Part shown: positions 2,119-23,094 of the stretch, piece after piece
Layout: each line of letters opens with the position of its first letter
How positions within the stretch are numbered: position 1 is the first letter of the stretch
Source of the DNA: Escherichia coli
GTDB lineage: Bacteria; Pseudomonadota; Gammaproteobacteria; Enterobacterales; Enterobacteriaceae
Length of the DNA: 64,000 nt
NCBI RefSeq assembly: GCF_045037415.1
Contig: NZ_CP173438.1
Direction: 5' to 3' (one strand)
Translations under genes and position numbers: made by a program
Notes under the pieces: generated by a model
What the model was told of the DNA's origin: nothing
The model's database searches: none
What the model saw: the letters and a program-made list of their open reading frames with translations, nothing else

Positions 2119-3105
2119 GTGGATAGAGATCAAACAAACAGCAGCCTGTTCAATGATGATCCCGTACTTCATGCAACATGGCTGTACTATCAGGAAGGCA
2201 AAAGCCAGACTGAAGTTGCAGCTATCATGGGGGTGTCCCGCGTCACGGTTGTCAAATACCTGCAAACAGCCCGGGAAAATGGACTGGTTCATATCAACCT
2301 GGATGTGAATGTCTTTGGCTCTATCGACGCTGCTTTGCAAATTCGCGATAAATTCAATCTCCAGAGAGTGATCATCGTGCCGGATGGCGAACATGCCGGA
2401 AAACGTGATGATACAAAGCTGATGCGGACTCGCCTTTCACGTGCCGGTGGCATGTATCTGAATCAGGTGATTGAGAATGGTGATGTGCTGGGGGTTGCCT
2501 GGGGAAGAACAATCCATCAGATGAGCAAAACCATGACGCCGAAGTCATGTAAAAATGTCACCGTTATACAGATGCTCGGTTCCATGCCATCTCAGCCAGA
2601 CCTGACGATCATTGAATCCTCATCGCAAATCGCCTACAAGCTTTCAGGCCGTGTCGCCTCGCTGCACGTGCCCGCCGTGGTATCAAGCGCCAGACTGGCC
2701 ATGGAGTTACAGGCAGAGCCTATTATTCGATCGAATTTTGACGTTCTGACTCGCTGTACGAAAGCCTTTTTTGTCGTGGGTAACGCGCTTGATGAAAATC
2801 CCCTGATTCGGGTGGGCGTGCTGAATAAGAAGGAAATGCAGACGTATCGGGATTTAGGCGCAGTAGGTGTCATTTGTGGTCGCTTCTATGACAAGGAAGG
2901 GATGCCCGTCGTGGCTGATGTTGACCAGCGTATTCTGGGAATCAGTCTGGCTCAGCTAAGGCAGATTGAACGGAAGATCTTCCTTGCTGGTGGGGAAAGA
3001 GGCTATGACGCAACGTTGGGTGCCCTGCTGGGAGGATATGTCACGGACCTGATTGTTGATGAAGGAACGGCAGAGTTTTTGCTGGCGTGTGAATTACCAC
3101 ACTAA
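2119..3105 (+). CDS. yjhU: SorC/DeoR-type sugar-binding transcriptional regulator (GTG start)
   Basis: 328-aa ORF with N-terminal HTH (SQTEVAAIMGVSRVTVVKYL) and SorC-like sugar-binding body; position matches K-12 yjhU. Confidence 0.8.
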   Translation: MDRDQTNSSLFNDDPVLHATWLYYQEGKSQTEVAAIMGVSRVTVVKYLQTARENGLVHINLDVNVFGSIDAALQIRDKFNLQRVIIVPDGEHAGKRDDTKLMRTRLSRAGGMYLNQVIENGDVLGVAWGRTIHQMSKTMTPKSCKNVTVIQMLGSMPSQPDLTIIESSSQIAYKLSGRVASLHVPAVVSSARLAMELQAEPIIRSNFDVLTRCTKAFFVVGNALDENPLIRVGVLNKKEMQTYRDLGAVGVICGRFYDKEGMPVVADVDQRILGISLAQLRQIERKIFLAGGERGYDATLGALLGGYVTDLIVDEGTAEFLLACELPH

Positions 3106-3117
3106 AAGAATGAACAA

Positions 3118-3150
3118 CTGCCCCATGTGGATATGGGGCAGGATTTTATT
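3118..3150. terminator. Putative bidirectional rho-independent terminator between convergent yjhU and transporter gene
   Basis: Inverted repeat TGCCCCATgtggatATGGGGCA followed by a T-rich tract. Confidence 0.5.
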
Positions 3151-4151
3151 GATTAGCGGCGATAATAAGAACAATACCCACAATGTATGAAATAAACATG
3201 GTCAGCAGCAGTTTATTGGTTCCGGCTGGCGCACTGGCAAATTCTCTCCAGATGAAGACTCCCCAGATCACGGCAATCATTGTGGCCCCCTGTCCCAGAC
3301 CGTAGGAAATGGCATACCCCGCCTGACCAGACGCAATCAGACTGAATGCCAGACCGACACACCAAATCATACCGCCCAGCCAGCCGCAAACATGATCCCG
3401 TAAGCTCCCGGAAAAATACATTTTCCCGTTGACCGGTTCTCCTGAAATAGGTTTTTTCATGACCAGCGTGTTAAGGACAAAGTTCGACAAGAACAGCCCC
3501 ACGGCAAACAGAACAAGTGCTGAGTAAGGCGTCATCAGACCGCTGGCAGGCTGGCTGAAATTGTCAGACATGGAGTCCGCCAAGAAGCGGAAAAACCATC
3601 CCATGATGATACCCGCCAGAATGGCAGTAATGAGAACCTTTATTACGGCGAGATTTATCCGCCTCCTGCGTGACACGACCATAGGCTATCGCGGTAAAAA
3701 TAATGGCGCTCACAACGCAGGCGACACCGAGGAACAGAATGAGCGGATCGCCCTGCGGATTGCCGATATAGGTGGTGATCACACCCAGAGCCAGTGCCAG
3801 CCCCACACCCACAGGAAAAGCTACCGCCATACCGGCAAGATTAATAGAAGCGACCAGAAGAATATTGGAAATATTGAAGATAATCCCTGCCAGTATTGCC
3901 GACATCAGACTACTGCTGCTCGCCTGCTGAATATCAGGTATAAAACTGCGACCGGCTTCGCCCATAGAACCCAGCGTGAAGGCAAATAACAAAGAACACA
4001 GCAATAATCCAATTGAATAATCCCAATAGAATAGAGGGAACTCCCATTTTTTATTGCTGACAAGTTTAGTTGTATTCGCCCATGAACCCCAGCAAATCAT
4101 GGTAATAAAACACATTATTATGGCGACAGCATACGATTCCACGATAAACAT
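3146..4151 (-). CDS. GRP/RbsU-type (DMT superfamily) sugar uptake protein, apparently frameshifted around 3645-3680
   Basis: Two overlapping minus-strand ORFs (3564-4151 and 3146-3682), both multi-TM, frames switching near a shared SRR(R) stretch. Confidence 0.55.
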
Positions 4152-4254
4152 AAATAACTCCTTGTGGTAGTTATAATCAATCGTTGTGGACAGAGGGAAT
4201 AGCAGCCATTCTGCGAATGGCTGTCATATGTTATTAATTAAAATAAAGCTGTAA

Positions 4255-4896
4255 TTACGCTTTCAAACCATACGTTTTGAATTTTTCAAGGACGATGGTC
4301 ATTTCGGCTTCAGACAGCACGGGAACATCGTGATGTAATCCGCCACATTTGATGTATAAATCAGCCAGCGTCTCGGTTTCACCCGCCAGCCACAACGTCT
4401 TTTCCAGCGTGACGTCCATGGCCAGCATACCGTGGTGCTGCATCAGCAAGGACTTACTTTCTCTGATTCCTTTAGATACACCGTCGGCCAGTTCAGGACT
4501 GCCAAAGGTATAATAGGGAATACAGGGAATATGATCCGTCCCCGATACCGCCACCATATAATGAATGGCCGGAATTGAATGATTATGTATTGCCACCGCC
4601 GTGGAATTCACCGCATGCGTATGTATGACAGCATTCAATTCTGGTCTGGCTTTATAACACGCCAGATGAAATAACCATTCACTTGATGGTATTTTACCCG
4701 CTTCAGGTATTCCCTTATCGTCTACAAAGACAATCATGTCCGGCGTCATCTTTGAATAAGCGATCCCACTCGGCGTAATCAACATGCCACCGGTATACCT
4801 GGCACTCACATTACCTGATGTTCCTTGATTAAGACCTGACGCATTCATTTCCCGACAAGTGGAAATGATTTTTTCTGCTAACTTAATCCGTTCCAT
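4255..4896 (-). CDS. Class II aldolase/adducin-family protein (DHAP-shunt type aldolase)
   Basis: 213-aa ORF with class II aldolase signatures (GTSGNVSAR, metal-binding His cluster HTHAVNSTAVAIH); immediately downstream of mtnA. Confidence 0.8.
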   Translation of the reverse strand: MERIKLAEKIISTCREMNASGLNQGTSGNVSARYTGGMLITPSGIAYSKMTPDMIVFVDDKGIPEAGKIPSSEWLFHLACYKARPELNAVIHTHAVNSTAVAIHNHSIPAIHYMVAVSGTDHIPCIPYYTFGSPELADGVSKGIRESKSLLMQHHGMLAMDVTLEKTLWLAGETETLADLYIKCGGLHHDVPVLSEAEMTIVLEKFKTYGLKA

Positions 4897-4926
4897 TCCT
4901 GATCCTTAATAGCAATGGCCGCCGTT

Positions 4927-6042
4927 TTAATGCTGTTCCCCCTGGAGTGCTTTACTCTTCAGGTCAGCAAACATATCCGCCAGCGCTGACTTACTGGCAG
5001 CACAGACTCCCCGCTCAGTAATGAAGCCGGTAATGTATCGGGCAGGCGTGACGTCGAAAGCGTAGTTCCCACAACGGGTTCCTTCAGGGGCGGTATTGAC
5101 CCAGCTCAATTCTCCCTGAGGGTTTATCCCATAGACATGGGACTGCTCTTTTCCGTCACGTTGCTCAATCGGAATGCTTTTTCCGTCCTCGATAGTCCAG
5201 TCAATAGTGGGAGAAGGTAACGCGACGTAGAAGGGAACATGGTTATCATGGGCCGCCAGCGCCTTAAGATAGGTACCAATTTTATTACAGACATCCCCTC
5301 TGGCCGTGGTTCGATCGGTCCCAACAATGCAGAGATCAACGTCACCGTGTTGCATCAGGTGGCCACCCGCGTTGTCGGCGATCAGGGTGTGAGGAATACC
5401 GTGTGAGCCCAGTTCAAATGCCGTGAGTCCGCCCTGATTACGTGGCCGCGTTTCATCCACCCAGACGTGAACAGGGATTCCGTTTTCATGCGCTTTGTAG
5501 ATGGGAGAAAGCGCGGTTCCCCAGTCTACAGTCGCCAGCCAGCCTGCGTTACAATGTGTCAGGATATTGACCACACTCCCGGCCGGTTTTTTCTGGGCTA
5601 TTTCGCGGATGACTTCTGTACCATGTAATCCAATTTGTTCACACAACGCGACATCTTCCTCGGCAATTTCTGCCGCCAGCGCCCAGGCCACATCCTTGCG
5701 CTCTGATACACAGAGATCCTTCAGTGTGTCTATCATCCTGTCGAGGGCCCATTTGAGATTAATTGCCGTTGGTCGGGTTTTGATAAGAAGGTCATAGTAA
5801 CGCTGCAGACCCATGTCACTGGCATCGTGATTCATTCCCAGCGCGATGCCATAGGCTGCAACGACACCAATAAGCGGAGCGCCACGAACCCACATCTCCT
5901 GAATAGCCGTAGCGGCCATTTCCGCAGAGGTAAGCGCCACCACCTCGAACTTAAAAGGCAACTTAGTCTGATCGATGATTTCTACCGCTTTTCCATCCCC
6001 GGAAACCCAGACCGTACGATAGTGTTTACCTTTAATATTCAT
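4927..6042 (-). CDS. mtnA: S-methyl-5-thioribose-1-phosphate isomerase (eIF-2B alpha/beta/delta family)
   Basis: 371-aa ORF; N-terminus ...[19 protein letters not shown] and ...[20 protein letters not shown] typical of MtnA. Confidence 0.85.
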
Positions 6043-6051
6043 AATGACCTC

Positions 6052-7311
6052 TTACTTAACCTTCGCAGACTGGATGACGGAATCCATATTTTTAAACTGG
6101 CGGGCATTGACGATAAGATCGCGCGCCATGGTCAATGCACGTCGTTCACATCCTGCGCGAAGCTCTGTATTTTCAATCTGTTTCAGCTCGGCAACGCCAG
6201 CAAAACCAATGATCCGGCGATTCATTTCCATGCCGGCATTCACCAGGGAATCTTCAAGCAGCGTGGCAAAAAACTGATCCTGTGCGTCCTCAAGAGCGGC
6301 CCTGTTCTGTTGATACATTTCTGTCGGCCACGCGTCGCCCTGTGTTTTGTTGTCCCAGAGCTGGCGGAACTCCCGGGTGAAAACGGACCAGGTTTGGACA
6401 ATCTGCTGAAGCAGCCATTCCTGATAGTCAGCGCGACGTTGCTCATTCGCATCCCACCCAGGGCGTGAGAAGTACGCCAGCAGGAGGTTGCCAATATAGT
6501 TGCCGATATCAAACGCCATTGGCCCCATGAAACCGAACTCCGGATCAATCACTTTGGTATCCGTGTCGGTCACCATGATTGAGCCTGAATGAAGGTCGCC
6601 ATGTAACAATGCCTGCGCTTCTGTCATAAATTTGTACTTATAACGCATGGCAACCTGGATCATCTCTACATCAGCCCAGGCCTTATGGACGGCATCGTCC
6701 AGCTCAGGAGAAGTCCAGTTATTCCGTTCAGCGTTGTAATAGGGCTCTGTGAAGATCAGATCTTCCGTAATTTTGCACAGCTCATGATTCAACGCGAACT
6801 CGGCAGTAAGCGCTTTTTTCTGTTCTGCTGACATGCCAATGTCAGACGTATTGAAGAGAGTCTGTGCTAAAAATCTGCCGATATCTTCAGCTAGTTTAGG
6901 GAATTTTTTACCGTTAATCAGTTCCTTACGCAGAATCACGTGAGGAGTCAGATACTCCATGGCAAACAGCGCCATTTCCGGGTCGTAAAAATAGACCTGC
7001 GGAATCAGTGTGTGACCCGCGTACTTGGCTTCCTGACATAAGACGTTGTACTCAAAGCCCGCACGGCTCAGAGATAAAGGCCATCCTTCGCCCCCTGCAC
7101 GAAGCCAGGGCAGAGCTTGTTTTACAATGATGGTTTTATGTGTCCCCTCAACGATAAACACCATGTTCAGGTTTCCGTCCCCCACTTCTGAAACTTTCCA
7201 CTCTTCAGGTAACCCTCCCGGTTCGCATGAAGGGGTCAGTCTGGACGAGAGATAACCCGGCAGCGTGTCACATGTCAGCGGCTTGTAACCTGATGGAATT
7301 GAATCCGTCAT
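6052..7311 (-). CDS. mtnK: 5-methylthioribose kinase
   Basis: 419-aa ORF with aminoglycoside-phosphotransferase-like kinase fold motifs (HGDLHSGSIMV, DPEFGFMGP); 10-bp gap to mtnA. Confidence 0.85.
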   Translation of the reverse strand: MTDSIPSGYKPLTCDTLPGYLSSRLTPSCEPGGLPEEWKVSEVGDGNLNMVFIVEGTHKTIIVKQALPWLRAGGEGWPLSLSRAGFEYNVLCQEAKYAGHTLIPQVYFYDPEMALFAMEYLTPHVILRKELINGKKFPKLAEDIGRFLAQTLFNTSDIGMSAEQKKALTAEFALNHELCKITEDLIFTEPYYNAERNNWTSPELDDAVHKAWADVEMIQVAMRYKYKFMTEAQALLHGDLHSGSIMVTDTDTKVIDPEFGFMGPMAFDIGNYIGNLLLAYFSRPGWDANEQRRADYQEWLLQQIVQTWSVFTREFRQLWDNKTQGDAWPTEMYQQNRAALEDAQDQFFATLLEDSLVNAGMEMNRRIIGFAGVAELKQIENTELRAGCERRALTMARDLIVNARQFKNMDSVIQSAKVK

Positions 7312-7926
7312 AACAGTTCTCCTTGTCTACACAGAATGATAATCAACTTGTCATGTGACAACTATACATTATCAAATGTAAAATTATTTGTGACACATGT
7401 AGATTTTTTGAACTGTATAATATTAAAAATGATGTCGTATGGAGTCATGATCTTTACAGGAATCAGCAGAGGAAAACATCTATTATTACCATGTAATTCA
7501 TGTTGTTATGTCGCAACAATAGTACTGCACGGGGAATTATTACGGGCAAACTTAGGCGAAAGGAAGTACTGAAGTGACAGAATAAATCACACTTTTTGTA
7601 CATATGTACTTTTCTATTGTCTTTTGTTGTGGAAACAAATAGTGTTTGTCATGCCGATGCTAATAGACAGATAGATTCGAGGGCCAACAGCCCCATCATC
7701 ATGATGGAGCAACAGAGGTGAGTCTAACGTTTCCGCACTTCTTATCGATCGGCACTAACGATCAATATCGATAAACTGATCTATCAAAACGATTATCTTT
7801 CTTGCAACCTGCCTGGTTATCCTTCTCTTACATTGCTCGCAGAAAAGCCCTTTTATTACGGTTAGTTATCTAGCTGAGACTTGCTACGCCCATTTTCCAT
7901 GTACCCCAAATCACGAGGTCACAAAG

Positions 7927-8104
7927 GCGCGGAAAGATGAAGAGATGTGCACGTTGCAACAAAAAAAGAAGCGTCCTTGAACAGAGGCTCTCACTCGATA
8001 AAGAATTCTGCGACGAGTGCTTATTCGATATCGATGAGGAAATCAGGGAAAGAAGGATTATCACGATCAGACGCCTCAAAGATGACAACGAAAGAAAATC
8101 GTAG
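7927..8104 (+). CDS. Hypothetical small zinc-ribbon protein (56 aa, CxxC...CxxC)
   Basis: ATG at 7927, ORF MKRCARCNKK...FCDECLFD... to TAG at 8102-8104; below the 60-aa ORF-track cutoff; weak RBS. Confidence 0.2.
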
Positions 8105-8110
8105 CTCAAT

Positions 8111-8857
8111 ATGAAAAATGGAATCGATGTCAGCGTCATTATCCCTGCTTACAACGCCGCTGAAACCAGCGTTAGTTTGGTTACTAAAATCCTCAGTGAA
8201 CCCCACTTGGCTATTGAACTTATCATTGTCGATGACGGTTCTACTGATGAAACTGGCAACGTTCTTCGTCAAATCCACGATGATCGGCTCATTCTCATTG
8301 AGCAGGCCAATCAAGGTGTCTATGCCGCCCGAAATGCTGCTCTAGCCTTGCACCAAGGAGAATAGGTTATATTCCTTGATGCGGACGACGATATAGCAGA
8401 TGGGTTCATAGAAAAAAGATGGCAGGCAGTTAGTACGTCGCAAGCCGACGTCATGATCTTTAATGGCTGGCATTCCTGTGCTGACCAACATCGAAGAGCG
8501 GTTCACAAAAAGCAGCCCTATGGTACGCCTCTGTCAGGTTATTAATGGATTAGACACTGTGTTACACACCGCGAATGGCCGCATTATCTGTGGCTGCAGA
8601 TGGTCAGGCCATCCTATGTCAGGCAGCATTCACTGCGCTTCCAGTCCGGCAGGAGCCATAAAGACATTTTTTAAACGGTTCATCTTGCAGCGAGCAATGG
8701 TTGATTCTGTACATTGGATATAAAGGACTATATCTATATCAACAATAAGGCCTCTATCACACATCGGCCGGATTACTACGTTGTTCGTGCTATAAACTAT
8801 GTTGAAGTGATCGCGAAAATCATCCAAGTAGCGGAACAAGAACAAAACAAAAAATAA
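8111..8857 (+). pseudogene. Family 2 glycosyltransferase, degraded by frameshifts and stops
   Basis: Intact N-terminus VSVIIPAYNAA...IIVDDGSTDET, then DxD motif (FLDADDD) and later segments only in other frames. Confidence 0.5.
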
Positions 8858-9468
8858 AGGTATTTTTGTACCGGCATGCGCTGGTAGAGGCACGTCATTT
8901 TTTGGGACTCTACCGCAATCGCGTTGGGGATAAATCGGGCATGAAGGACTGCTTCAAAGCGAACATATTCGCAGCCCATTTATTCAGAGGTATCAGCAGT
9001 TTTAGCGATGTGTTTTTCTTTATTAAGCTGCTGGGCAAGCTATTCTGATAAGTTGTGCGTTGCTACACGACACCAGCGCACAGCTTAATTTCACGCTTTC
9101 TGACTAAATTGTTCAGGCCTTTTCTATAGGTGCAAACACAACTCCCCGTACTTTCCTCTTCCAACTCAAAATCATCGCACCTTGCTGACCCAAGAAGGGA
9201 GCATACCCTGCACTAGTATCCGCACAGCTAATACTCTATTGATACCAACAACGCTTCAGCACAACAAAGTAACTCGATAATCACAACTCAAAGTGAAGAT
9301 GCCAAAAACTCGTTTGAGAGCAATAAATTCAATAACATGAAAAAAATGTATTTTGCATTGAAAATCTTACTTATTGCGCTTGGCTACAATTGCATGCTTG
9401 GTAATATAGATTATAAAACACCAGACTAGCTGCCTGGTAAGTAATGTAATAGCAGAGGAAATATCACG

Positions 9469-11544
9469 ATGGATCTTGTAGATAGTGTCGAAGCAGGTAA
9501 GCTGACGATCAGTGAATTGATTGATGCCCTGGCGAAAGATAAAAATTACTCAGCTTCCAAGTGGGATCAGCGATACCGTGAATTTACGACCTTGCTACAA
9601 CAAACCTCAACTTTTTCTGAACCTGAAACGGATGGTTTAGTCAAGAGGCTCTGGTATGAACGCGATAACGGTATTGCCAGTATTCGCCAGGGCGTTCCAT
9701 CCTTAGCAGAATATCAGCAAAGCCTGCCACTGCTTAGAGAACTAACTGAACGAATTCGGCAACAGCCGGATGAAGAAACTTACCAATATGTTGGCAATGC
9801 ACTACAACAAGCTAAAGAAAACGGACTTCTCAAGCGTATGTATAGGAGTTTGAGAAATCGCGTCTTTGCCGCGTTCTCGCCAGAAAACTACACCAGTACT
9901 GTGGATGAGAATGCTTTTAGTAAAGCAGCAGAATTCCTAAATCAGCACTTCCATCTCGGTCTGGCACTGACCGGAAATTGGTTACAGAAAAACTATGAAT
10001 TGAAACAAGCCATACACGCCCAATCTCCTGACACAGATCCTTATTACGTGAATATGGCCATCTGGCATCTCTATGAATTGCTCCGTGAACGCGATAATGA
10101 ACAAAAGCAGGAGAAAATAGCGAGCACTACATTCATAACCAGCAATGAGCCCATCGAGAACAAGATCATCCTACATTCACCAACTAACGTGATCTTCTTT
10201 GGCCCCCCTGGCACTGGCAAAACCTTCAGGTTGCAGCAAAAAATGAAAGAGTACACTTCTCATGCTGTTCCAGCTGATCGTGATGCCTGGCTGGATTCTC
10301 GCCTTGAATCGTTGAATTGGATGCAGGTTATAACGCTGGTGCTGCTCGATCTTGGGAAACGAGCCAAAGTTCGCCAAATTATTGAACATATGTGGTTTCA
10401 ACGTAAGGCATTATTAAACGGTCGTAATGGCAACCTATCGAATACAGCCTGGGCAGCTTTGCAATCCTATACAGTTCCCGAGTCGTTAACCGTTGATTAT
10501 AAGAATCGGCGTGAGCCTGCCGTATTTAACAAAACAGATAACAGCGAATGGTTGCTAGTTGATTCACAGCTCGAGCAAGTGGAGGATTTGGTAGAGCTCT
10601 ACGCCGAACTTAAACGAGGCCCTAAATCTGCCGAAGCCATCCAGCGTTTTGCGGTGGTTACGTTCCACCAATCTTACGGCTATGAAGAATTTATTGAAGG
10701 TATACGCGCTCGCTCTGACGAGAGTGGCAATATCTCTTATCCCATTGAGCCGGGTATCTTTATGCGCCTTTCCCAACGTGCCAATGCCGATCCAGGACAT
10801 CGCTACGCCATTTTCATTGATGAGATCAATCGCGGTAACATATCCAAGATCTTTGGTGAACTAATCTCACTCATTGAAGTAGACAAGCGTGCAGGCATGC
10901 CCAATGCAATGAGCCTACAACTGGCTTATAGCGGTGATCACTTCAGCGTACCCGCCAATGTCGATATCATCGGAGCCATGAATACAGCGGACCGTTCTTT
11001 AGCTCTGATGGACACGGCTTTGCGCCGTCGCTTTGACTTTGTCGAAATGATGCCCGATCTCTCTTTACTGAGTGGAGCTAAGGTGAAAGGCATAGAGCTC
11101 GAGTCGTTGTTAGAGAAACTCAATAGCCGCATCGAGGCTCTTTACGATCGTGAACATACGCTGGGGCATGCGTTCTTTATGCCGGTAAAAAATGCACTCG
11201 ATGCCGGTGATGAAGAAGCTGCGTTTAAACAATTGAAGATCGCATTCCAGAAAAAGATCATTCCGCTTTTACAGGAATACTTTTTCGATGACTGGAACAA
11301 GATCCGGTTGGTGCTGGCAGACAATCAAAAGCAAGACGACAACCTGCAATTCGTGATTGAGAAAACCGACGATCTCGATACGCTTTTTGGTAACAACCAT
11401 GGTTTACGACACCATGATCAGCAATCAACAGCTTACGAACTCAAAGATTTCGATCAAGAGATCTGGAATATTCCACAGGCTTATCGTTCAATTTATCAGC
11501 CCCAGCAGACTCCCCTTGATGAGCAGGCTGTAAATCATGGGTGA
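9469..11544 (+). CDS. McrB-family AAA+ GTPase (type IV restriction subunit) with non-canonical ~230-aa N-terminal domain
   Basis: Walker A FFGPPGTGKTF; McrB signature FHQSYGYEEFIEG; Walker B FIDEINRGNISKIFGE; MNTADRSLA...ALRRRF. Confidence 0.85.
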   Translation: MDLVDSVEAGKLTISELIDALAKDKNYSASKWDQRYREFTTLLQQTSTFSEPETDGLVKRLWYERDNGIASIRQGVPSLAEYQQSLPLLRELTERIRQQPDEETYQYVGNALQQAKENGLLKRMYRSLRNRVFAAFSPENYTSTVDENAFSKAAEFLNQHFHLGLALTGNWLQKNYELKQAIHAQSPDTDPYYVNMAIWHLYELLRERDNEQKQEKIASTTFITSNEPIENKIILHSPTNVIFFGPPGTGKTFRLQQKMKEYTSHAVPADRDAWLDSRLESLNWMQVITLVLLDLGKRAKVRQIIEHMWFQRKALLNGRNGNLSNTAWAALQSYTVPESLTVDYKNRREPAVFNKTDNSEWLLVDSQLEQVEDLVELYAELKRGPKSAEAIQRFAVVTFHQSYGYEEFIEGIRARSDESGNISYPIEPGIFMRLSQRANADPGHRYAIFIDEINRGNISKIFGELISLIEVDKRAGMPNAMSLQLAYSGDHFSVPANVDIIGAMNTADRSLALMDTALRRRFDFVEMMPDLSLLSGAKVKGIELESLLEKLNSRIEALYDREHTLGHAFFMPVKNALDAGDEEAAFKQLKIAFQKKIIPLLQEYFFDDWNKIRLVLADNQKQDDNLQFVIEKTDDLDTLFGNNHGLRHHDQQSTAYELKDFDQEIWNIPQAYRSIYQPQQTPLDEQAVNHG

Positions 11545-12823
11545 AGTTATCTCCGTTTTTGAATATGACCTATTGGGGAGTGACAAAGCGGCTTCAGTTG
11601 GCGCAAAACTGGTGCCTCCACTGGTCTTTAATTATTTAGAAGCGCTTAGCTTGGCAAGTAATCAAGGGAGCCAGTTCCTCAAACTCACCTCTCGCTCAGG
11701 CTTCAAATTGCTTCAGGTTCAAAACTACGCGGGGATGCTTTCAACACCTCACGGTTTCCAGCTTGAGATACTGCCCAAGGTTGGTAAAAACCTCACAGCG
11801 GCTAATGCACGTCAAACATTACTGACGATGCTAAGCCATTTGCCTGGGTTTCGACATATTGAAACTCAGCAAGCCACTCTTCAGGCTCAGCGTATGCCTT
11901 TGCTTGAGATTTTTATTCACCAGTTTTTGCATAGCGTTAGCCAATTACTTAAACAAGGTTTACGCTCCGACTATGTGAGCGAGCAAGGTAATCTGGCTTT
12001 TATGAAGGGCAAGCTGATGCTTTCTGCACAGCTGCGACATAACGCGGTGAATCGCCATAAGTTTTGTGTCGATTATGATGACTACATGCCTGATTGTGCA
12101 GCCAATCGGCTCTTACACTCCGCGCTAGATAAGCTTCTTAGTCTAAAGCTGTCATCAGAGAATCAACGCTGGCTTTACGAACTGCGCTTTGCGTTTGACG
12201 GTATTCCACTTAGCCGGGATATTGAACGTGATATAAACAACTTACGCCTCGAGCGTGGTATGGCTCATTACAACGAGCCAATGGCGTGGGCGCAATTGAT
12301 CCTGAGAGGAATGAGTCCGAGTGCTTTGCAGGGAAACACCAAAGCGATATCACTTTTGTTCCCTATGGAAGCGGTATTTGAATCCTTTGTGGCACAGACC
12401 CTACCCTACGAATTACCTTCTCATCTCAAAGTAATACCACAAGCGGCTACTTATTCTCTTGTGAAGCACGGGTCTAACGATTGCTTTAAACTTCGGCCGG
12501 ATTTGTTGATTCAGTCACGTCGACCGGTACAAACCAAATTGGTGATGGACACAAAATGGAAGCTAATAAATAGCAACTCCCAAAAAACAACACAGTATGG
12601 GCTAGCGCAAGCCGACTTCTATCAAATGTTTGCCTACGGTCAAAAATACCTAAATGGGATTGGCGAAATGTACTTAATCTATCCTGCGCATGATCAATTT
12701 AACCAACCGATACAGCAGCATTTTGCTTTCTCTAAAACATTAAAACTATGGGTTGTTCCGTACCAGATAACAGCAAACCGCGGGGAGAGGATGATGTGGG
12801 TGAAGGATGTGTCCAGTATATAA
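11537..12823 (+). CDS. McrC-family nuclease subunit
   Basis: 428-aa ORF overlapping the McrB-like stop by 8 bp (translational coupling); C-terminal PD-(D/E)xK-like LRPDLL...VMDTKWK. Confidence 0.75.
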   Translation: MGEVISVFEYDLLGSDKAASVGAKLVPPLVFNYLEALSLASNQGSQFLKLTSRSGFKLLQVQNYAGMLSTPHGFQLEILPKVGKNLTAANARQTLLTMLSHLPGFRHIETQQATLQAQRMPLLEIFIHQFLHSVSQLLKQGLRSDYVSEQGNLAFMKGKLMLSAQLRHNAVNRHKFCVDYDDYMPDCAANRLLHSALDKLLSLKLSSENQRWLYELRFAFDGIPLSRDIERDINNLRLERGMAHYNEPMAWAQLILRGMSPSALQGNTKAISLLFPMEAVFESFVAQTLPYELPSHLKVIPQAATYSLVKHGSNDCFKLRPDLLIQSRRPVQTKLVMDTKWKLINSNSQKTTQYGLAQADFYQMFAYGQKYLNGIGEMYLIYPAHDQFNQPIQQHFAFSKTLKLWVVPYQITANRGERMMWVKDVSSI

Positions 12824-13547
12824 ATTTCTAGCCAAGCTGGCGATGAACCAGTCCTCTAAAAAATGGGTATAATCATAGTTTATTTACTAATTAAATTAAT
12901 ATAAAGTAATTACTTTATTATATGGAGAATTTATGAAAATGGGAAAAATTGCAGTTACTCCTAATAATGATAAAGCAGCCAGCCACTCTAAAGATGAAAA
13001 TTTAGCCACAAATACAATTAAGAAAAACGTAAAACCTAAATATGGCGATGCGGCATTTTTAGAGTACACTCGACTAATAGTTAACCACCCGAATTATTTT
13101 GGAATGCCAGATCCCTTTGGGGAAAAAGGTGAGATTCAATGGGAAGCTCCATCAAATAGGGCATCGGGGAAATTTAAACACACTCATCAACGGCGCTATG
13201 AATGGTGGAAAAATAAAGCCAGAAGTATTGGGATAGACCCTGACACTGAAAAAGCATGGATTAGTAAAACAGCTAAACTAATTCATCCACTTGGAGTTAA
13301 ACCATGCAAGAAATGCGGTAAAGAAATGGAATTATCTTACTCCTACCCAAATGAGCATTTCTTTTCTCGGGTTAGGAAACTTAATTATATAGATGAGACT
13401 TTTGAGCTATCTCAAAATGAACACATAGTTGATTTGTTGACTCGTTTAGATGATAGATTTGGTGAAAGAATATATTTAGATTTACCACATTTATTTTCTA
13501 CAAAATCCATCACGATTTGAAGTGGTCAACAAAAACTGGCCACCGAG

Positions 13548-14695
<1,148 letters not shown>

Positions 14696-15928
14696 TATGG
14701 CACCTGTGTTGTTCTGAGGTGAGCATATCACCTCTGTTCAGGTGGCCAAATTCAGTAAACCACTTCAATTCCAGATATTTCAAGCAATCTCGAAGCATGG
14801 ATTGAGTATCTAAAAGAACAATACATACCTCAAGAATCACGTATGCTTAGCCCTGGAGCCATGGCAAATCCTCCAGATCGTTTTGATGGATTTCATTCAT
14901 TTAACCGCTGTTGTCGCTCTATTGCTGATAAAGGAAGGACCAAAGAAAATCTTAAATCTTATGTTACTGACAGAAGAGTTTTCGAATATTGGGTGGATGG
15001 TGATTGGGTAGCTGCAGACAGGCTAATGGGCCAAGTTAGAACAAATAATATATTTATTAACGAGGAATGTTTGAATGCCGGAAATGGTGGTTTACATCCA
15101 ACTCCTTGCCAAGCAGATCACATTGGCCCAATCTCACTAGGGTTTTCCCATCGCCCACAATTTCAACTACTTTGCAAATCATGTAATAGTGCCAAAAACA
15201 ATCGTATGTATTTAAGTGATATAATCTCTTTATTAGAAGCTGAGAATGAAGGTCATACGGTTATTTCATGGTTCGCAGAAGAAGTATGGAATCGACTAAA
15301 ACACTCTGTAGATGATAGTGAAAAAGCCTTAAGACTAAGTAAAATACTACGTGATAATAGACATACATATATGAATCTTCTTAAAAAAATAATGGATGAA
15401 GGTTATTATACTTTCCTTGCAAGTCTTTTACATCTTGAGGTAGCCAATTATAACCCAATATTTGAGGGATTATGCATTTCAAATCATTTAACTCATTATA
15501 AATCATTAAAAAAAATAAAACGTGAATCAAAATATGCTGCTGTGCAAAAAACAAGACGAATCAGAATAGCATTTACTTCATTGAATGATTATCATAGAAA
15601 AGAAAATCGGAACGCATTTATTGTATCAAATGAATTATCTGAGAAGTTTTTCTCTGAAGCTATGGATAATTTAAAATCATTAAGTGAAATTACATCTTGC
15701 TTAGATGAAAAAATATCCGGAATAATATCTGAGAATTCAGATTCAAAAAATGAATTTCGAACAATCATTACAGATCTACGAGAAATAGTGACAAACAATA
15801 AAGAAAAATTCAACTTGATATTAAAATATCTAATATCAGGGATGAGCGAAATAGGAAAAGAACTGGAATCATATTGGGAAAATGATCGTTATGTTCGCTC
15901 AATCCCAGAAGAATTTATAGAGTAAGAC

Positions 15929-15952
15929 ATAGCCCTCTTATAAAGAGGGTTT
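15929..15952. terminator. Possible bidirectional terminator hairpin between convergent REase and MTase genes
   Basis: CCCTCTTtataAAGAGGG hairpin followed by TTTTAT; overlaps the C5-MTase stop. Confidence 0.3.
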
Positions 15953-17128
15953 TATATTCCTTTCATAATATTCTGAAGGAGTAATATTACCTCTCATGAA
16001 TAATTGATAGTCATTTTCGGGGTGATGGATATAATATTTACCACTTCCATCTTCACCATGTTGCAAAGGAGGCAGATCAGATAATGCATCCTTTACAGAT
16101 ACCCAAGATTCCTTATCTTCTGTTAATTTTTGTGGAGGTTCAATTGAAAATAAAGGGTCGTTTGAACCAACCAATATAACCCTTTTTCGGCGCTGAGGGA
16201 TTGCATAATGTTCAGAGTTTAATATCCATCCATTCATAGTTTTCATGGTTGATGAGAATTCTTCTTTGACTCTTTCAAAGACCTTACCTTTTTCCATATT
16301 CAACAAACCAGCAACATTTTCAAAAATAAAACCGTTTGGTTTTATCTCATTTAAGAGAGATTTATAATGCATAAAAAGTGAATTTCTTGGATCATCCATT
16401 GTTCTGGCATTTCCTGCCGTAGAAAATCCCTGGCATGGGGGTCCACCAAGTATCCATAATTGTTTATCAAAATATAATTTCTTAAATCCTGATATTTTAT
16501 CTGCTATTTTTGAAAAAGTTTCATTATCAGAAATGCTGCCACATAAAACTTCTTTGTGAACATTGTTTGAATATGTTTGTAGATATTTTTCTTCAATATC
16601 ATTCGCCAATAATGGAGTCCATCCAGCCCATTTGAATCCTAGTCCCAGCCCTCCAGCTCCGGAAAATAAATCGATATAATAACCAGTATTACCTATCGCC
16701 TTCTCTATTTCTTTCGCAATCAGAAAAGCTAAAAATGGGGGCACTGCATTACCGATTTGGGTATTAATTGCTGTTTGACCTCCGAAGAAAATAAAATCAT
16801 CCGGGAACGATTGTAGTCTTGCAGCTTCTCTCTGGGATAGAACACGATCTTGCTCATAGTGAATATGGCAACCATTCCCAGGTCGGTTAAAATATGTATT
16901 GATAGTATATGCAGGCATATCTGGAAGTAATCTACCGTAGTATGTTGAACGGCTTCCTTTTCCTTGTGCATAACTATCCCTAATTTGCTCTATTCTTTTA
17001 GACGGTACATCTAAAGGAATATTTTTCCAGTTGCCACCTGGCGGTACTGAGTTAACAATCATCATATCCAATTCACTTAGCTTTGCTGCCTTGTGATTGG
17101 GAATCATAAATGTTTCACTTTTAGTCAT
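15938..17128 (-). CDS. DNA (cytosine-5)-methyltransferase, circularly permuted motif order
   Basis: Motifs IX/X (RLQSFPDDFIF, QIGNAVPP) precede motif I (DLFSGAGGLGLGF), IV (GGPPCQGFSTAGN), VI (FIFENVAGLL), VIII (QRRKRVILVG). Confidence 0.85.
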   Translation of the reverse strand: MTKSETFMIPNHKAAKLSELDMMIVNSVPPGGNWKNIPLDVPSKRIEQIRDSYAQGKGSRSTYYGRLLPDMPAYTINTYFNRPGNGCHIHYEQDRVLSQREAARLQSFPDDFIFFGGQTAINTQIGNAVPPFLAFLIAKEIEKAIGNTGYYIDLFSGAGGLGLGFKWAGWTPLLANDIEEKYLQTYSNNVHKEVLCGSISDNETFSKIADKISGFKKLYFDKQLWILGGPPCQGFSTAGNARTMDDPRNSLFMHYKSLLNEIKPNGFIFENVAGLLNMEKGKVFERVKEEFSSTMKTMNGWILNSEHYAIPQRRKRVILVGSNDPLFSIEPPQKLTEDKESWVSVKDALSDLPPLQHGEDGSGKYYIHHPENDYQLFMRGNITPSEYYERNIKPSL

Positions 17129-18761
17129 AATGTTGAAAAATCCTCAATAAACTTTCTTTTTCAGCTAACTCAATCTTATCAAATGAAGACAGAAGCTTAT
17201 TAAATTCATTCAAATCCAATTTGTAAATATTTTTGGCAACATAAGCCTCAATTTTCAACTCAGCATCACAACATCCCTCTATGCAAGAAATCACAAGTTG
17301 TTTTAATTCAGAATGTTGTAATAATATTTTTTCAGACGGTATTGCAGTTTTTCGTAAGGCTGACAATGATACATGACCAGTAGCTAAAAAGCTTCTTAAT
17401 TGAAATTCAAAACAAAGGGAGTTTATAATACCAAGCAAACTAAAGAGCGAATCTTGCGAACCACTTTTATAATAGACCACCCCTAATGAATTCCCTGCCA
17501 AAGAGTTAGGAGGTATTATCGTTGCAATCATTCGCCTTTTTTGACTCGGGCGTGAAATGTCACGCCATGCAATCCTTACGAAATTAGAATTGGATAGAAC
17601 CTTATCAATTTTTTTCGTTATTCTTAAGCTCTTCTCATTATGAAAATTATACCTCCCAATCATTTTTCCTTTAATGAATAATAATCCGCCGCCACTTTTT
17701 TGTGTCCAGTCACTACTACCAGTTTCATCTATTTCTCTTCCTGCCCATATCTCTCCATTTTTTTCCAGACTACCCCATGTTGGGTATCCCTCTTGCAGCT
17801 TTCTTAACAAATGAACGGCATGAACACCTTGAGATACCGGAATGCTAAGATATTGAGAATCTATACTAGACAAATCAAAAAAACCTAGTGATTTAATATT
17901 TAAGTTTTTATCATACACACTAAGTTGAATATTATCATTAAGGGATTCACCTTTATTAAAAATAAAAGAACATGAAGAAACATCAGCACCGCCGAATAAT
18001 TTAGCCTCAGCTGGATAATAATTTATGCAATCAATCCTCCCTGAATTAAAAAACTTTTCACGTAATATGTACGATTGTTCATCTGCGAAAAAAGATGCAG
18101 GCATAACTATAGCTACCAATCCATTTTTATTACATATTTCTAAGCTAAGTTCTGCACCAACACGTGAAAGATTAGTCCCCCACCCAGCAAATTTACGCTT
18201 CGGCTGAGAATATGGCAATACTCTTGACAAATAATCATCAAACTCACGAAGAGAGTCTATATACATCGATTTCATAGATGGTTCAAAAAAATCGAGCTCT
18301 CTAGAATCTGGTTTTATATTCTCCCAAGGCGGATTGGTTATAACACAATCAAAATAATCAACATATTTTTTAAATTCATAAAAAACATCACTATTTTTTA
18401 TAGTAATGTTAATATTTGCACCTGCTAACTTAAGTTCAGACAACGCATTTTTAGCATAAGTGAGGCCTGTATTTTCTATATCGAACAGATAAACATTCCA
18501 CTCTACATCTGGAAAACCATTTATCATCCATTGTTTAATAAGCAATGTAATAAGTCGACCATCCCCTGAAAATGGATCTGCGACATTATAACTTTTTTTA
18601 TCACAGGAATTTATCAATGGTAATAACTTCTCTATCATCAAAAGAGCTATTTTTGGATCTGTATAGTATTTACCTGTCGCTTTTTTAGTGAATTTTGTTG
18701 TCTCGTCCAAGGACAGTGAATTAATTAAATGGATATGTTTCATGTAAAATATCTCTTCCAT
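17121..18761 (-). CDS. N6-adenine DNA methyltransferase
   Basis: Motif I VADPFSGDGRLI and motif IV VITNPPWE; stop overlaps the start of the downstream C5-MTase by 8 bp (operon). Confidence 0.8.
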   Translation of the reverse strand: MEEIFYMKHIHLINSLSLDETTKFTKKATGKYYTDPKIALLMIEKLLPLINSCDKKSYNVADPFSGDGRLITLLIKQWMINGFPDVEWNVYLFDIENTGLTYAKNALSELKLAGANINITIKNSDVFYEFKKYVDYFDCVITNPPWENIKPDSRELDFFEPSMKSMYIDSLREFDDYLSRVLPYSQPKRKFAGWGTNLSRVGAELSLEICNKNGLVAIVMPASFFADEQSYILREKFFNSGRIDCINYYPAEAKLFGGADVSSCSFIFNKGESLNDNIQLSVYDKNLNIKSLGFFDLSSIDSQYLSIPVSQGVHAVHLLRKLQEGYPTWGSLEKNGEIWAGREIDETGSSDWTQKSGGGLLFIKGKMIGRYNFHNEKSLRITKKIDKVLSNSNFVRIAWRDISRPSQKRRMIATIIPPNSLAGNSLGVVYYKSGSQDSLFSLLGIINSLCFEFQLRSFLATGHVSLSALRKTAIPSEKILLQHSELKQLVISCIEGCCDAELKIEAYVAKNIYKLDLNEFNKLLSSFDKIELAEKESLLRIFQHYD

Positions 18762-18999
18762 TAATAATATGGATTATATCATTTAACTTGTGAACACTCA
18801 ACAATAACTGTACATAAAAACAGTCATTAAAGATTTCCCCTAGAGTGAGCATCGCTATAAAAATTTAAATTAATTTTATCCTGCTCCGAAAGAAACAGTT
18901 ATCATTTATTCCATAAAGAATAACTTGCTTTATAATCACTTTAAATATCGATATCAATTTTAATACTATGGTTACTTACCATATCAATAAATAGCTTAA

Positions 19000-19790
19000 C
19001 CCGTTATCTCGATACCCCTTAAGAACCCCTTCCGCAACTGCAACATAATCTACGCTCATCCACATGCCTGGTGCGTATTACCGTGAAGGAGATCGGTGAG
19101 TTATTGAGTGATCTCCTTTCATGAAAATACGCACCTGGCTTTAACTGTTCCTGATATAAGTTGACAGTTTTCTGTCCGTAAAACGGTTGATGAACTTCAT
19201 CGGGCGTTTTGTATTTCAATGCCAAATGTGACCGCTCATGGTTATAAATTGCCACGAATTCTTTTACCATTTACCGGCCCTACGTCAGCTCTGCAGGACG
19301 CGAGAGTAAAAACTCATTTTCAGGATTCCGTTTATCCACTCAGCCTGCGCATTCTGGTGGCAGTTATAACCATTAGTCATTGAACAGGTTATTGATAAAT
19401 AATTAAAAAACTCAGTTTTCTGGCTCGCCTGCTCAAGCTGTTCTTCAAGTTCCCTGATTCTTTGCTCGGGTGTCAGCGGGACAGTCGCCAGAGCCACAGG
19501 CAGTCTCCTCTTTACCTGGTCAGGAAGTCCGGGGCTCCAGTCAAGCCGGCCATATTTACGCAACCAGACAAGAACGGTGGAGCGCCCCTGAATGCCATAA
19601 CTGCAGCCGGCCTGTTTATAAGTCATCTCGCCTTTTTCAACCTTCTCAACAACGGCTATTTTAAAGGATAGAGGATAATCACGTTGAGTGCGTTTGAACC
19701 CAGACATCATCACGTTCTCCGGGTTTAAGTCAGGAACGTGTCATAGCTATTCAGGACGGGTCACCGACACAAAAAAAGTCGCCCTTGAGC
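19000..19790 (-). mobile_element. IS3-family element remnant (internally deleted OrfA/OrfB), boundaries approximate
   Basis: ORF 19285-19713 has OrfA-like HTH (MSGFKRTQRDYPLSFKIAVVEK...) fused to integrase-core C-terminal pieces; 19140-19270 encodes the OrfB C-terminus (...AIYNHERSHLALKYKTPDEV). Confidence 0.55.
19072..19133. mobile_element. 62-bp mini element made of the two IS21-family terminal repeats joined back to back, flanked by 5-bp direct repeat CCTGG
   Basis: 19072-19100 matches the end at 19817-19845; 19101-19133 matches the end at 22364-22396; CCTGG at 19067-19071 and 19134-19138. Confidence 0.6.
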
Positions 19791-19901
19791 GACTCGATTT
19801 GCATACGGTATGGTGCTGCGTATTACCGTGAAGGAGATCGGTGAGTAACATCGATGGAGATCGGTTCGTGTCACTTTCACAGAACCGTTTTTAAATTACC
19901 T

Positions 19902-20651
19902 TCACTGATCTCCTTCGGTCAACGGAGATTGTATTTTCCGCATTGATTCTCCTTTAAGTTCGATCTTGATACTGCCATGAACCAGTCGATCTAGGATGGC
20001 ATCCGCATGTGTGGAGTCTCCGATCATTTTGTACCAGTTTTCCACCGGCAACTGGCTCACTACGATGATTGAGCCTCGTTGGTACATCAGATCCACTATT
20101 TCCAGCAGGTCGCTACGCTGTTCTGATGAGAGAGGTTCCAGCCCCCAGTCATCCAGAAGCAGCAGATCGCTATTATTCAGCCTGGTCAAAAGTTTGCTGT
20201 ATCTTCCATCAGCATGCCCCTGATAGCACTGTTCCATCAGCGCTTTAAGGCGATAATAGTAGACCTTGTATCCCTGTCGGCAGGCATTATGACCAAGTGC
20301 ACATGCCAGGAACGTTTTACCGCTGCCGGTGGCCCCGGTCAGTAAAATATTTTGTTTCAGGGTTAACCAGTTTCCCTGACTGAGTGAACGGATGAGGGCC
20401 CTGTCCAGCCCTCTATTGTTACGATAATCCAGCTTTGATAACTCAGCATTAAGTCTGAACCGTGCATGTTTGATCAGACGCTCTGCCTTCCTGTTTTCAC
20501 GGCAGGTTAGTTCTTCTGCTGTCAGTAATGACAGGCGTTCTTCGAAGCCCAGCTCCTGGTATGTGCCCGGTTGAGCAAGTTGCTTTTTAAGCGCATCACG
20601 GAAGCCGGTGAGTTTAAGTGCGGTCAGTTGTTCGTAAAGATGATTCATCAT
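19902..20651 (-). CDS. istB: IS21-family IstB ATP-binding helper protein
   Basis: 249 aa; Walker A LTGATGSGKTFLA, Walker B LLLLDDWG. Confidence 0.9.
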   Translation of the reverse strand: MMNHLYEQLTALKLTGFRDALKKQLAQPGTYQELGFEERLSLLTAEELTCRENRKAERLIKHARFRLNAELSKLDYRNNRGLDRALIRSLSQGNWLTLKQNILLTGATGSGKTFLACALGHNACRQGYKVYYYRLKALMEQCYQGHADGRYSKLLTRLNNSDLLLLDDWGLEPLSSEQRSDLLEIVDLMYQRGSIIVVSQLPVENWYKMIGDSTHADAILDRLVHGSIKIELKGESMRKIQSPLTEGDQ

Positions 20652-20662
20652 TGGATCCCGTA

Positions 20663-22204
20663 TCAGTGGTAATACTCACTGCCGCGTACGTTTTCGTGTT
20701 CCATCGTGGATAACAGATCTGGTTTTGGATCCTGAACAGGTTGTTTATCCAGACCTTTTTCCAGGATCGATTTAATACCTGACAGACGCCATACCTTTGT
20801 TTTCAGAGCTCTTGCACATGCTGCATTAAGTCTGGCTTTACTGTATTTTTTATGAAGGTTCAGGAGTCCAAGGCAGAAGCGATAGCTTTGTTCCGGATGT
20901 GGACGAGAGTTCAGTATATGAAGCACATAACTATGAGTTTCACTGCCTATGTGCCCCGCCCATTCCAGAAGACGCTCTGGCGTCCAGGTGGCATGCTGTC
21001 GATGAGCTTCAGGCATGTGCTCGTTGCGGGTACTGTAGCCATAAGTACGCTTGCGCGGGTGCACAGCAACCTCCTGCCCCTGATTGAAGAGTCTTACCAG
21101 TTCTCCGGAGATCCATGCTTCCAGTTGCTGGCCTAACAGCGAACATGGAACCGAGTAGTAATGTTTGTCGATTTCCACGTGGTAATCGGCATGAACTCTG
21201 ACTTTCTTCACCAGGGTGTAACTGTAACTGGCTTCAGGAAGAGGCTTCAGTGCGGGTTTATCAAGCTGGATGAAGAGTTCTGCACGTGAATAACCCAACT
21301 TCTGCATTATTTTGTTATTCAGTCTTTCCAGCAACTCCCGAATGCGCTGATTAAGCGATGCAAGGCTGTAGAAGATCTCATGCCTGATTCGGGCCATGAT
21401 CCAGCGTTCAACAACCTGAACGCCAACTTCAGCTTTGGCTTTATCTTTCGGTTTACGTGGCCGCGCAGGCAAAACTGCGACATTATAATGCTCAAGCATC
21501 TGCTGGTAGGTAGGGTTAACGTCAGGATCATACTTACATGCCCTGGATGTGGCGCTTTTCAGATTGTCCGGAACAACAAGTTCAGGAACGCCACCCAACC
21601 ACTGGAAGCAGCGAACATGACTCATCACCCAGTCTTCAAGCTGCTGAGACCAGGTGGCCTCTGCCCATGTGTAACTTGATGCCCCGAGAACAGCTACGAT
21701 GACCTGAGCAGTTCTTATTTCTCCGGTCTCAGGGTCGGTAACGCCAACGGTAGGTCCACAGTAATCAACGAAAAGTTTTTCGCCAGCTTTATGTACCTGA
21801 CGCATTGATGGTGAAGTGGTTTTGAGCCATTCACGGTACATCCGGCAGTAATGGTTATAGCTGTAAAAACCGCCTGGATTACGCTCACAGTATTCTTCCC
21901 AGAGTAGCTGCAGCGTCACGCATTTATTACGCAGTTCCCGGTGTACTGTAGCCCAGTCAGGCAGAGAGTGCTTCTTCATCTTAACCTGGGTCTGAAGGAA
22001 CGCATGTTTTAGTTTTGTATCATCCCATCCTGTAGGTAAGGGCCACTGCTTTATGCCAAGTTGAGCCGCCCGATTAGCATATCTGGATACAACGGAAGGG
22101 GAGATTGCAAGACTACGACCAATTTGTCGATGGCTGAGTCCAACACCGTATTTAAGCCTAAGAATTTCTTTAAGTTTTCTCATAGAAATTGGAACTGTTG
22201 GCAT
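20663..22204 (-). CDS. istA: IS21-family IstA transposase
   Basis: 513 aa; N-terminal HTH plus DDE integrase core. Confidence 0.9.
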   Translation of the reverse strand: MPTVPISMRKLKEILRLKYGVGLSHRQIGRSLAISPSVVSRYANRAAQLGIKQWPLPTGWDDTKLKHAFLQTQVKMKKHSLPDWATVHRELRNKCVTLQLLWEEYCERNPGGFYSYNHYCRMYREWLKTTSPSMRQVHKAGEKLFVDYCGPTVGVTDPETGEIRTAQVIVAVLGASSYTWAEATWSQQLEDWVMSHVRCFQWLGGVPELVVPDNLKSATSRACKYDPDVNPTYQQMLEHYNVAVLPARPRKPKDKAKAEVGVQVVERWIMARIRHEIFYSLASLNQRIRELLERLNNKIMQKLGYSRAELFIQLDKPALKPLPEASYSYTLVKKVRVHADYHVEIDKHYYSVPCSLLGQQLEAWISGELVRLFNQGQEVAVHPRKRTYGYSTRNEHMPEAHRQHATWTPERLLEWAGHIGSETHSYVLHILNSRPHPEQSYRFCLGLLNLHKKYSKARLNAACARALKTKVWRLSGIKSILEKGLDKQPVQDPKPDLLSTMEHENVRGSEYYH

Positions 22205-22917
22205 AGGTATCCTTTACCGGAATGGCAAAAGATACAGATCAACACACCTGTGAAGTTCCAATAACATTGATGGAGATCACTGAATAACAAAATGAGTCAA
22301 AAGTGATCTCCATCGATGTTATTCAGCGATCTGTTCAAATGTTATTACCCGATCTCGATGGAAGTTATTGAGTGATCTCCTTTCATGAAAATACGCAGGT
22401 GCGAAGGCCGGACTCAAACATGCGATTTAACCTCATGATTTAAAATTGTTAATAATAAACAACACCATCCTATACCAACACAGATACCAACACGAAAAAT
22501 CACTGGTTTTCGGCATCGAACCAGGACAATCAGGTCCTGATTGAGATACCGAGCTCTGTTACTCGTCATCTTCCTCGACAGGCTCCATTGCATCAAGTGG
22601 TACTCGCACCATCGCGATAGAACCAATCCGGATAAAAGCATCTTCCCCATCTATATCGGTTAACTGATATCGCTTACTTGATGCCGGATAATTGTGTCGA
22701 TTGGCAACAGTGTACTCTTTCGTACAGCCAGAATGTGGCAGACTGAGGTGGAATAGATAACGTCCGTATGCCCGCTGACCACCTCCGGGCGGGAGAGTGT
22801 GGTATCTGACATCATCATTTTTCCTTTCTGTTTATAAATGAAAATGCCAGCCGTGTTCAGGCTGACGTCAGGGAAGTGAAATCGGGTGAGTGATCTTCAC
22901 TGGTTCTGGTACAAAAG

Positions 22918-23094
22918 TTACTGTTGGCGCAGGGTACGGATACCCTCCCTGGCCTGTGCGATACAGGGCAACAGTGCTGCCGAATCTGTTTTATCCTCAT
23001 CGTTGTCGAAGATAATTCCCGATTCGCAGTCGATATTGTCCTGCAGCCACGTAATCAGAATATCCAGCGCTGTTTCCGTGGTTAATGATTTCAT
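22918..23094 (-). CDS. Small hypothetical protein (DUF957-like, 58 aa)
   Basis: ATG at 23094 (MKSLTTETALDILITWLQDNIDCE...); position downstream of yeeW-like gene as in CP4-type islands. Confidence 0.4.
   Translation of the reverse strand: MKSLTTETALDILITWLQDNIDCESGIIFDNDEDKTDSAALLPCIAQAREGIRTLRQQ

Follow-up and report, generated by a model that had tools for sequence, protein, structure and literature searches.

A horizontally acquired island lies within the window, by which we mean the whole 64,000-nucleotide stretch of Escherichia coli DNA analysed here, and we are highly confident that at the end of this island stands a dead gene for a glycosyltransferase of family 2 (GT2). Together with an intact 55-aa zinc-ribbon gene that directly precedes it, the pseudogene makes up one conserved two-gene module. 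The GT2 gene is a decayed accessory gene with no enzymatic function left; of the ancestral function of the module, E. coli retains nothing, and at most the promoter and the small ORF may still be expressed. Coordinates of the features are collected in Table 1.

Table 1. Positions of the island, its left-end features and the lesions of the GT2 pseudogene within the window.
Feature	Position	Strand	Remarks
Left island boundary	7731/7732		chromosomal mtnK flank stops at 7731
Island, 33 kb	7732-40696
Triple-GATC element	7747-7781		GATC at 7747, 7760 and 7778; spacing 13 and 18
Zinc-ribbon gene, 55 aa, intact	7937-8104	+	four cysteines, CxxC-N17-CxxC; GT2 partner gene
GT2 glycosyltransferase pseudogene, full length	8111-9048	+	938 nt vs 939 nt (312 aa) in intact relatives
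Premature stop 1	8363-8365	+	TGG (W85) > TAG; upstream of DxD motif DADDD
Premature stop 2	8543-8545	+	GAA (E145) > TAA
Premature stop 3	8672-8674	+	TGG (W188) > TAA, two G>A changes
Premature stop 4	8702-8704	+	CGA (R198) > TGA
A6 run, A7 in all intact alleles	8849-8854	+	1-bp deletion, single gap in nucleotide alignment
Downstream flank of the conserved module	9049-9286		island cargo differs between genomes past 9286
McrB/McrC genes, first island cargo	9469-12823	+	Pfam AAA_5 and McrBC; syntenic with GT2 in Klebsiella/Enterobacter

Lesions and decay of the GT2 gene

The lengths given in Table 1 identify the GT2 gene as a full-length pseudogene and not a fragment. Its reading frame begins at the ATG at 8111 and codons 1-84 are uninterrupted, as the initial annotation had it when it called the N-terminus of a degraded GT2 intact. 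The degradation itself consists of four in-frame stops and one 1-bp deletion, that is, mostly nonsense substitutions in one frame plus a single frameshift near the 3' end. A six-frame translation of 7850-9000 places GT2 residues 1-248 in one frame, including the DADDD motif (codons 90-94, 8378-8392), which is invariant across the GT2 family alignment and lies downstream of the first stop. The DxD region had been assigned to another frame, which is incorrect since DADDD shares the frame of the N-terminus. The related claim that the C-terminal parts lie in other frames is right for the last 64 codons (8854-9048), the only part put out of frame by the deletion, and wrong for everything through codon 248. 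The pseudogene also continues to 9048, past the end at 8857 that had been proposed. Alignment of the window copy with five intact genes at the nucleotide level requires exactly one gap, and a continuous frame could be rebuilt only with this one indel and four stop reversions, so that there is no uninterrupted ORF capable of encoding an active enzyme.

The family assignment can be made across these lesions. With the stops masked, the conceptual translation matches Pfam PF00535 over residues 8-134 (E=2.5e-26; 93 bits against a cut-off of 23.3), and the single-frame translation aligns over 100% of its length with 312-aa glycosyltransferases, the best at 87% identity (E=5e-141). Intact 312-aa relatives occur in Enterobacter, Klebsiella and Citrobacter at 81-87% amino acid identity, and on these comparisons the single-frame homology is far above chance.

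In RefSeq, only the first 84 GT2 codons (8111-8365) are annotated as a CDS, WP_000788354.1, under the name "glycosyltransferase family 2 protein" and with no pseudogene flag. Because the first stop, at codon 85, precedes the DxD metal/nucleotide-sugar binding motif, this 84-aa product cannot be a working enzyme. We considered whether the GT2 might nevertheless be functional, by stop readthrough or recoding or as split polypeptides, or whether its lesions might be sequencing errors, and find either hardly credible. The unflagged RefSeq protein would fit a functional gene, and so would the out-of-frame C-terminal 64 codons, which read IKVFLYRH...KLLGKLF and are 100% identical at the amino acid level to intact proteins (P0002 and P0004). 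However, all three types of stop codon are present together with a frameshift, which rules out stop-codon recoding, and family-invariant residues have been replaced at a dN/dS of 0.66. The whole region is deleted in 461 genomes, and mosaic recombination accounts for the conserved 3' end, where only 0-3 differences per 100 nt separate it from foreign alleles, the non-coding flank included.

The distribution of the allele decides the matter of sequencing errors. At least 99% identity to the dead GT2 allele was found in 622 of 5426 complete E. coli genomes, with 100% identity in all 37 full-length matches sampled, while the same 5426 genomes yielded no intact E. coli allele and, apart from one hit at 60-80%, no other E. 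coli match to the GT2. The longer segment 7300-9470 is present at full length in 566 of the 5426 and was 100% identical in the 19 full-length matches sampled, among them ST131, O6:K2:H1 and Nissle-derived strains. An identical sequence in hundreds of independently finished genomes excludes sequencing error, and the presence of the same dead allele across the E. coli carriers means that the GT2 had been inactivated before the island spread through these lineages. In 461 complete genomes, a 15.8-kb deletion (8051-23875) truncates both the zinc-ribbon ORF and cbtA, joins what is left of them, and takes out the GT2 pseudogene along with McrBC and the restriction-modification (RM) system, from which it follows that the module is dispensable in E. 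coli. Nothing argues against pseudogene status, and the 84-codon stump WP_000788354.1, which hundreds of E. coli genomes carry, those of ST131 and Nissle-derived strains among them, merits a pseudogene flag over 8111-9048.

Relative to five intact alleles, the window GT2 carries 27 private substitutions: 8 synonymous, 14 missense and 5 that form nonsense codons. G>A or C>T changes account for 14 of the 27, an excess that is the usual mutational bias. Several of the private missense changes fall on residues invariant in a 13-genus alignment, including V33, H144, S167, D224 and E236. With a dN/dS of about 0.66 for the E. coli lineage, compared with 0.11-0.22 when intact alleles are set against each other, the gene shows neutral decay; the substitutions indicate that evolution towards the E. 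coli allele was nearly neutral and biased from GC to AT. A neutral simulation of 27 substitutions under the observed spectrum gave a mean of 1.4 stops and P(≥4)=0.045; we discount this value as a sign of a meaningful nonsense excess in view of post-hoc selection and mosaic ancestry.

Divergence from foreign alleles is not even along the module. From 8032 to 8830 it amounts to about 5-25 nt per 100, whereas 8832-9230, which covers the 3' end of the GT2 and the downstream flank, shows 0-5 differences per 100 to three foreign loci (L001, L002 and L008). This mosaic suggests that the conserved flank of the cargo slot has recombined. The interval 8832-9286 resembles a conserved recombination flank of a slot for defence cargo, and cargo varies among genomes past about 9286.

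The zinc-ribbon partner and the island end

The ORF in front of the GT2 encodes MKRCARCNKKRSVLEQRLSLDKEFCDECLFD... (55 aa) and ends 6 nt upstream of the GT2 ATG. It had been noted as a possible zinc-ribbon ORF of 56 aa; the evidence now raises it to a conserved gene that travels with the GT2. An intact copy precedes the GT2 in all 12 of the Enterobacter/Klebsiella-type loci first fetched, and in a scan with one genome per species the gene was present in about 30 of 35 species-level loci, with hosts that include Buttiauxella, Erwinia, Rahnella, Yokenella, Kosakonia, Phytobacter, Trabulsiella, Kluyvera and Lelliottia. C4, C7, C25 and C28, the two CxxC pairs of the predicted zinc ribbon, are invariant in 31 of 31 sequences. 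Between pairs of sequences dN/dS runs from about 0.07 to 0.39, mostly 0.1-0.2, and dS between genera is saturated. Conservation upstream of the GT2 and low dN/dS together show a real protein-coding gene and constant partner of the GT2, although it is unannotated here. The E. coli allele has the private changes R16Q, W17R, Q34E and P43T, some at conserved positions, along with four synonymous changes. Searches of Pfam, NCBIfam and PADLOC with the protein gave no family, and PHROG no more than a marginal match (phrog_888, function unknown, E=0.004). The most divergent GT2 relatives, at 45-51% identity, have neither the zinc-ribbon gene nor the GATC element described below.

An island-free E. coli genome of ST12468 (L007) aligns with the window over 2299-7731 and then over 40697-42500, joining 7731 directly to 40697 with 1-2 bp of microhomology. 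Homology to Enterobacter and Klebsiella islands begins at 7733, or between 7725 and 7740 depending on the allele. The two lines of evidence agree and set 7731/7732 as the left end of the island and 40696 as its right end. The island-free junction is rare, being found in just one of 5426 complete E. coli genomes. A search for att-like direct or inverted repeats (7600-13000, and 7732 against 40696) returned only short chance matches and the 1-2 bp microhomology, and an Rfam scan of 7200-9600 at E≤1 gave no match. The right end falls within the 3' end of a gene annotated as "esterase-like activity of phytase" (40642-40697); in the island-free genome, the last ~10 codons of this phytase-esterase gene are the sequence that adjoins mtnK in the window (7700-7731). 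A second insertion of about 17 kb relative to ST12468 occupies 42501-59616, where ST12468 has an IS3 remnant.

The left part of the island holds the zinc-ribbon gene, the dead GT2, McrBC, an RM system of the Alw26I/Eco31I type and an IS21 element. On the opposite strand lie genes for CbtA, CbeA, RadC, an antirestriction protein, DUF932, Ag43 and a YeeP-type GTPase, and the rest comprises an AlpA-like gene, Gp2, two DUF7828 zinc-ribbon genes and IS66. The window's copy of the island has no annotated integrase gene. In the GI-leuX island of ST131 strain EC958, McrBC lies upstream of an Eco31I-like RM system (PMC4659465), and the window island corresponds to this GI-leuX region.

Comparison with other genera delimits what is conserved and what is variable. 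The stretch 7733-12799 is 90% identical to locus L001, which carries both GT2 and McrBC, and zinc-ribbon gene, GT2 and McrBC are together 90% identical over 5 kb to Klebsiella/Enterobacter islands. Three further loci (L002-L004) match 7733-9286 and then 12608-12799, with a type I RM system and an Abi gene in the place of McrBC. Past 9286 the window thus has McrBC where other genomes have type I RM, Abi or GmrSD, and both the exact island boundary and a cargo boundary at about 9286 are now defined. As judged by this synteny, zinc-ribbon gene, GT2 and McrBC arrived as one end of a CP4-like island of the GI-leuX type, and this block forms the terminal module of the same 33-kb island, the pseudogene not being a relic between two units. 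The module is located at the terminus of a CP4-type island, in the GI-leuX region of B2-type strains (ST131, Nissle), beside a slot for variable defence cargo.

These results bear on the idea, contained in the initial annotation, that the remnant separates a salvage cluster from a restriction island and may mark an older junction. The separation does not hold, as zinc-ribbon gene, GT2 and McrBC are one syntenic block. A junction is indeed close by, 205 nt upstream of the zinc-ribbon ORF, but it is not at the pseudogene. In its full form this explanation would make the GT2 a fragment with many frameshifts, left behind at an older junction where a restriction island, acquired on its own, met the methionine-salvage cluster. 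The nearby junction and the degraded state of the GT2 speak for it; we nevertheless consider it very improbable, since the GT2 is full length with a single indel, GT2 and McrBC are contiguous in single islands of other genera, and the junction lies upstream of the zinc-ribbon gene, away from the pseudogene.

The island copies differ from each other in several details. In the window, the gene for a restriction endonuclease of the Alw26I/Eco31I/Esp3I family is split by an IS3-family insertion (segments 12933-13520, 13548-14731 and 14843-15925), with an rve transposase ORF at 13548-14366; the same gene is intact (1740 nt) in the colinear copy of Ecol_745, and the two methyltransferase genes of the window (15938-18761) look intact. 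The IS21-family genes istA/istB lie at 19817-22397, between the RM genes and cbtA, and in Ecol_745 within the Ag43 gene, so that the position of this element varies between otherwise colinear copies. The DUF7828/Zn_ribbon_11 genes are found at 37006-37900 in the window, at the right end of the E. coli island, with a counterpart at 4612-5490 of L002; in Klebsiella and Enterobacter, DUF7828 genes immediately precede the zinc-ribbon-GT2 pair. Several other genera have the pair facing cbtA in convergent orientation with no cargo in between. These gene orders are related to each other by circular permutation or as tandem-island arrangements.

A triple-GATC element at the island end

Only 15 nt inside the island end, three GATC sites form a short array (Table 1). 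The 13/18 spacing is conserved in 28 of 32 other loci, with the adjacent bases varying. Throughout the 64 kb, the pattern GATC-N14/15-GATC-N9-GATC occurs solely here and in the agn43 switch (30451-30486), against a chance expectation of 0.02. The score against the OxyR consensus is 12/20, compared with 13/20 for the agn43 site, and about 0.1% of window positions reach at least 12. No sigma-70-like promoter was found on the plus strand between the element and the zinc-ribbon ORF, and counts of promoters and terminators were at the level of shuffled sequence. The main text of the ST131 methylome paper holds no list of unmethylated GATC sites.

From its sequence and spacing, the element may be a Dam-dependent (OxyR-type) switch, or else an array of protein-binding sites at the end of the island, and its likeness to the agn43 switch suggests that the ancestral module was phase-variable. 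By this analogy, expression of the ancestral module would probably have been switched ON and OFF through the triple-GATC element, as in agn43 and gtr, by competition between Dam methylation and the binding of OxyR or a comparable protein. A different role is also conceivable, which we hold to be doubtful: the array would be no expression switch but a terminal recombination site, for an integrase or an AlpA-type excisionase, or an operator of the zinc-ribbon protein. With only 15 nt between it and the end of the island, the array might just as well serve recombination or be an arm-type binding site, and in many species homology between loci begins just ~20-40 nt upstream of the first GATC. CGAT-type motifs occur about five times between 7745 and 7795, and the OxyR score of 12/20 is not decisive. 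Against this role, conservation is confined to the GATC tetranucleotides and the distances between them and does not extend to the flanking bases, which is the signature of Dam-dependent switches; a 13-bp GATC pair is also present in gtr, and the three-site layout in agn43 of the same island. The E. coli island has no integrase gene left, although this is uninformative on the ancestor.

Returning to the Dam-dependent switch, we tentatively propose, as a possibility that is on present evidence rather unlikely, that triple-GATC element, zinc-ribbon protein and WaaH-like GT2 constitute an undescribed Dam-dependent, phase-variable module for envelope or LPS glycosylation, of which the E. coli B2 copy would be a fossil. 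Such a putative module would be located at CP4-type island termini in many Enterobacterales genera, beside a defence-cargo slot, as an analogue of gtr. If the switch is real, it would add a new family to the few Dam/OxyR-switched surface-modification loci, one that is physically linked to defence islands.

The ancestral enzyme and its relation to known systems

The best NCBIfam match of the intact GT2 (P0001) is WaaH/YibD, PRK10073 (NF007482), at 145.6 bits. As the equivalog cut-off is 423, the GT2 is no WaaH ortholog. To K-12 WaaH the identity is 27% over 233 aa (E=5e-29). Relatives in the PDB are generic GT-A enzymes, and there is a weak PHROG "GtrB-like" match on the N-terminal domain. The intact GT2 has no transmembrane segment, with no 19-aa window of mean hydropathy above 1.5 outside an N-terminal beta-strand. 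A bactoprenol glucosyltransferase of the GtrB type was rejected: the C-terminal transmembrane helices are absent, and the neighbours are the zinc-ribbon gene and defence cargo with no gtrA or gtrC. A functional tie of the GT2 to McrBC- or GmrSD-type cargo (DNA glycosylation) was likewise rejected, as many loci carry the zinc-ribbon-GT2 pair beside cbtA with no cargo at all. None of the PADLOC defence models was matched by P0001, the zinc-ribbon protein, DUF7828, p195 or p234.

The ancestral enzyme was most likely a WaaH-like cytoplasmic glycosyltransferase that would add a sugar to LPS or another envelope glycan; we infer from its relatives that its role was most likely the glycosylation of LPS or envelope glycans at the cytoplasmic face. 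It may have worked with the zinc-ribbon protein or been regulated by it.

WaaH (YibD) is the UDP-glucuronate:LPS(HepIII) glycosyltransferase of E. coli K-12 and a member of GT2. Both it and the window GT2 are soluble GT-A/GT2 enzymes of similar size, and their likeness reaches past the generic nucleotide-binding core to the motifs W-I-R...W-H..W and H-(K/Q)-D-I-(L/V)-W-T. WaaH is, however, encoded by a chromosomal core gene with neither a zinc-ribbon partner nor a GATC array, whereas the window GT2 is island-borne and dead in E. coli.

The island as a whole is comparable to those of the CP4-57/CP4-44 type, whose YeeP GTPase, Ag43, DUF932, KlcA-like antirestriction protein, RadC and CbeA/CbtA are all present at 23596-31573 of the window. 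The K-12 cryptic prophages are without the terminal zinc-ribbon-GT2 module, unlike the window island. Within the latter, agn43 and the window element share the CP4-type island as well as a three-site layout, with the agn43 GATCs spaced 19/13 and those of the element 18/13 in inverted orientation; the stretches that separate the GATCs are alike only in part.

The gtr operons of Salmonella and Shigella phages and islands (GtrA-GtrB-GtrC) are likewise horizontally acquired, GT2-containing modules for surface modification. Their GATC pairs lie 13 bp apart inside OxyR half sites and make expression, and with it O-antigen glucosylation, phase-variable under Dam and OxyR (PMC2909390). The same 13-bp distance separates one pair in the window element. 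The two systems differ in their components: gtr has GtrA and GtrC and four GATCs, whereas the window module has a 55-aa zinc-ribbon partner and three GATCs, with no GtrA or GtrC.
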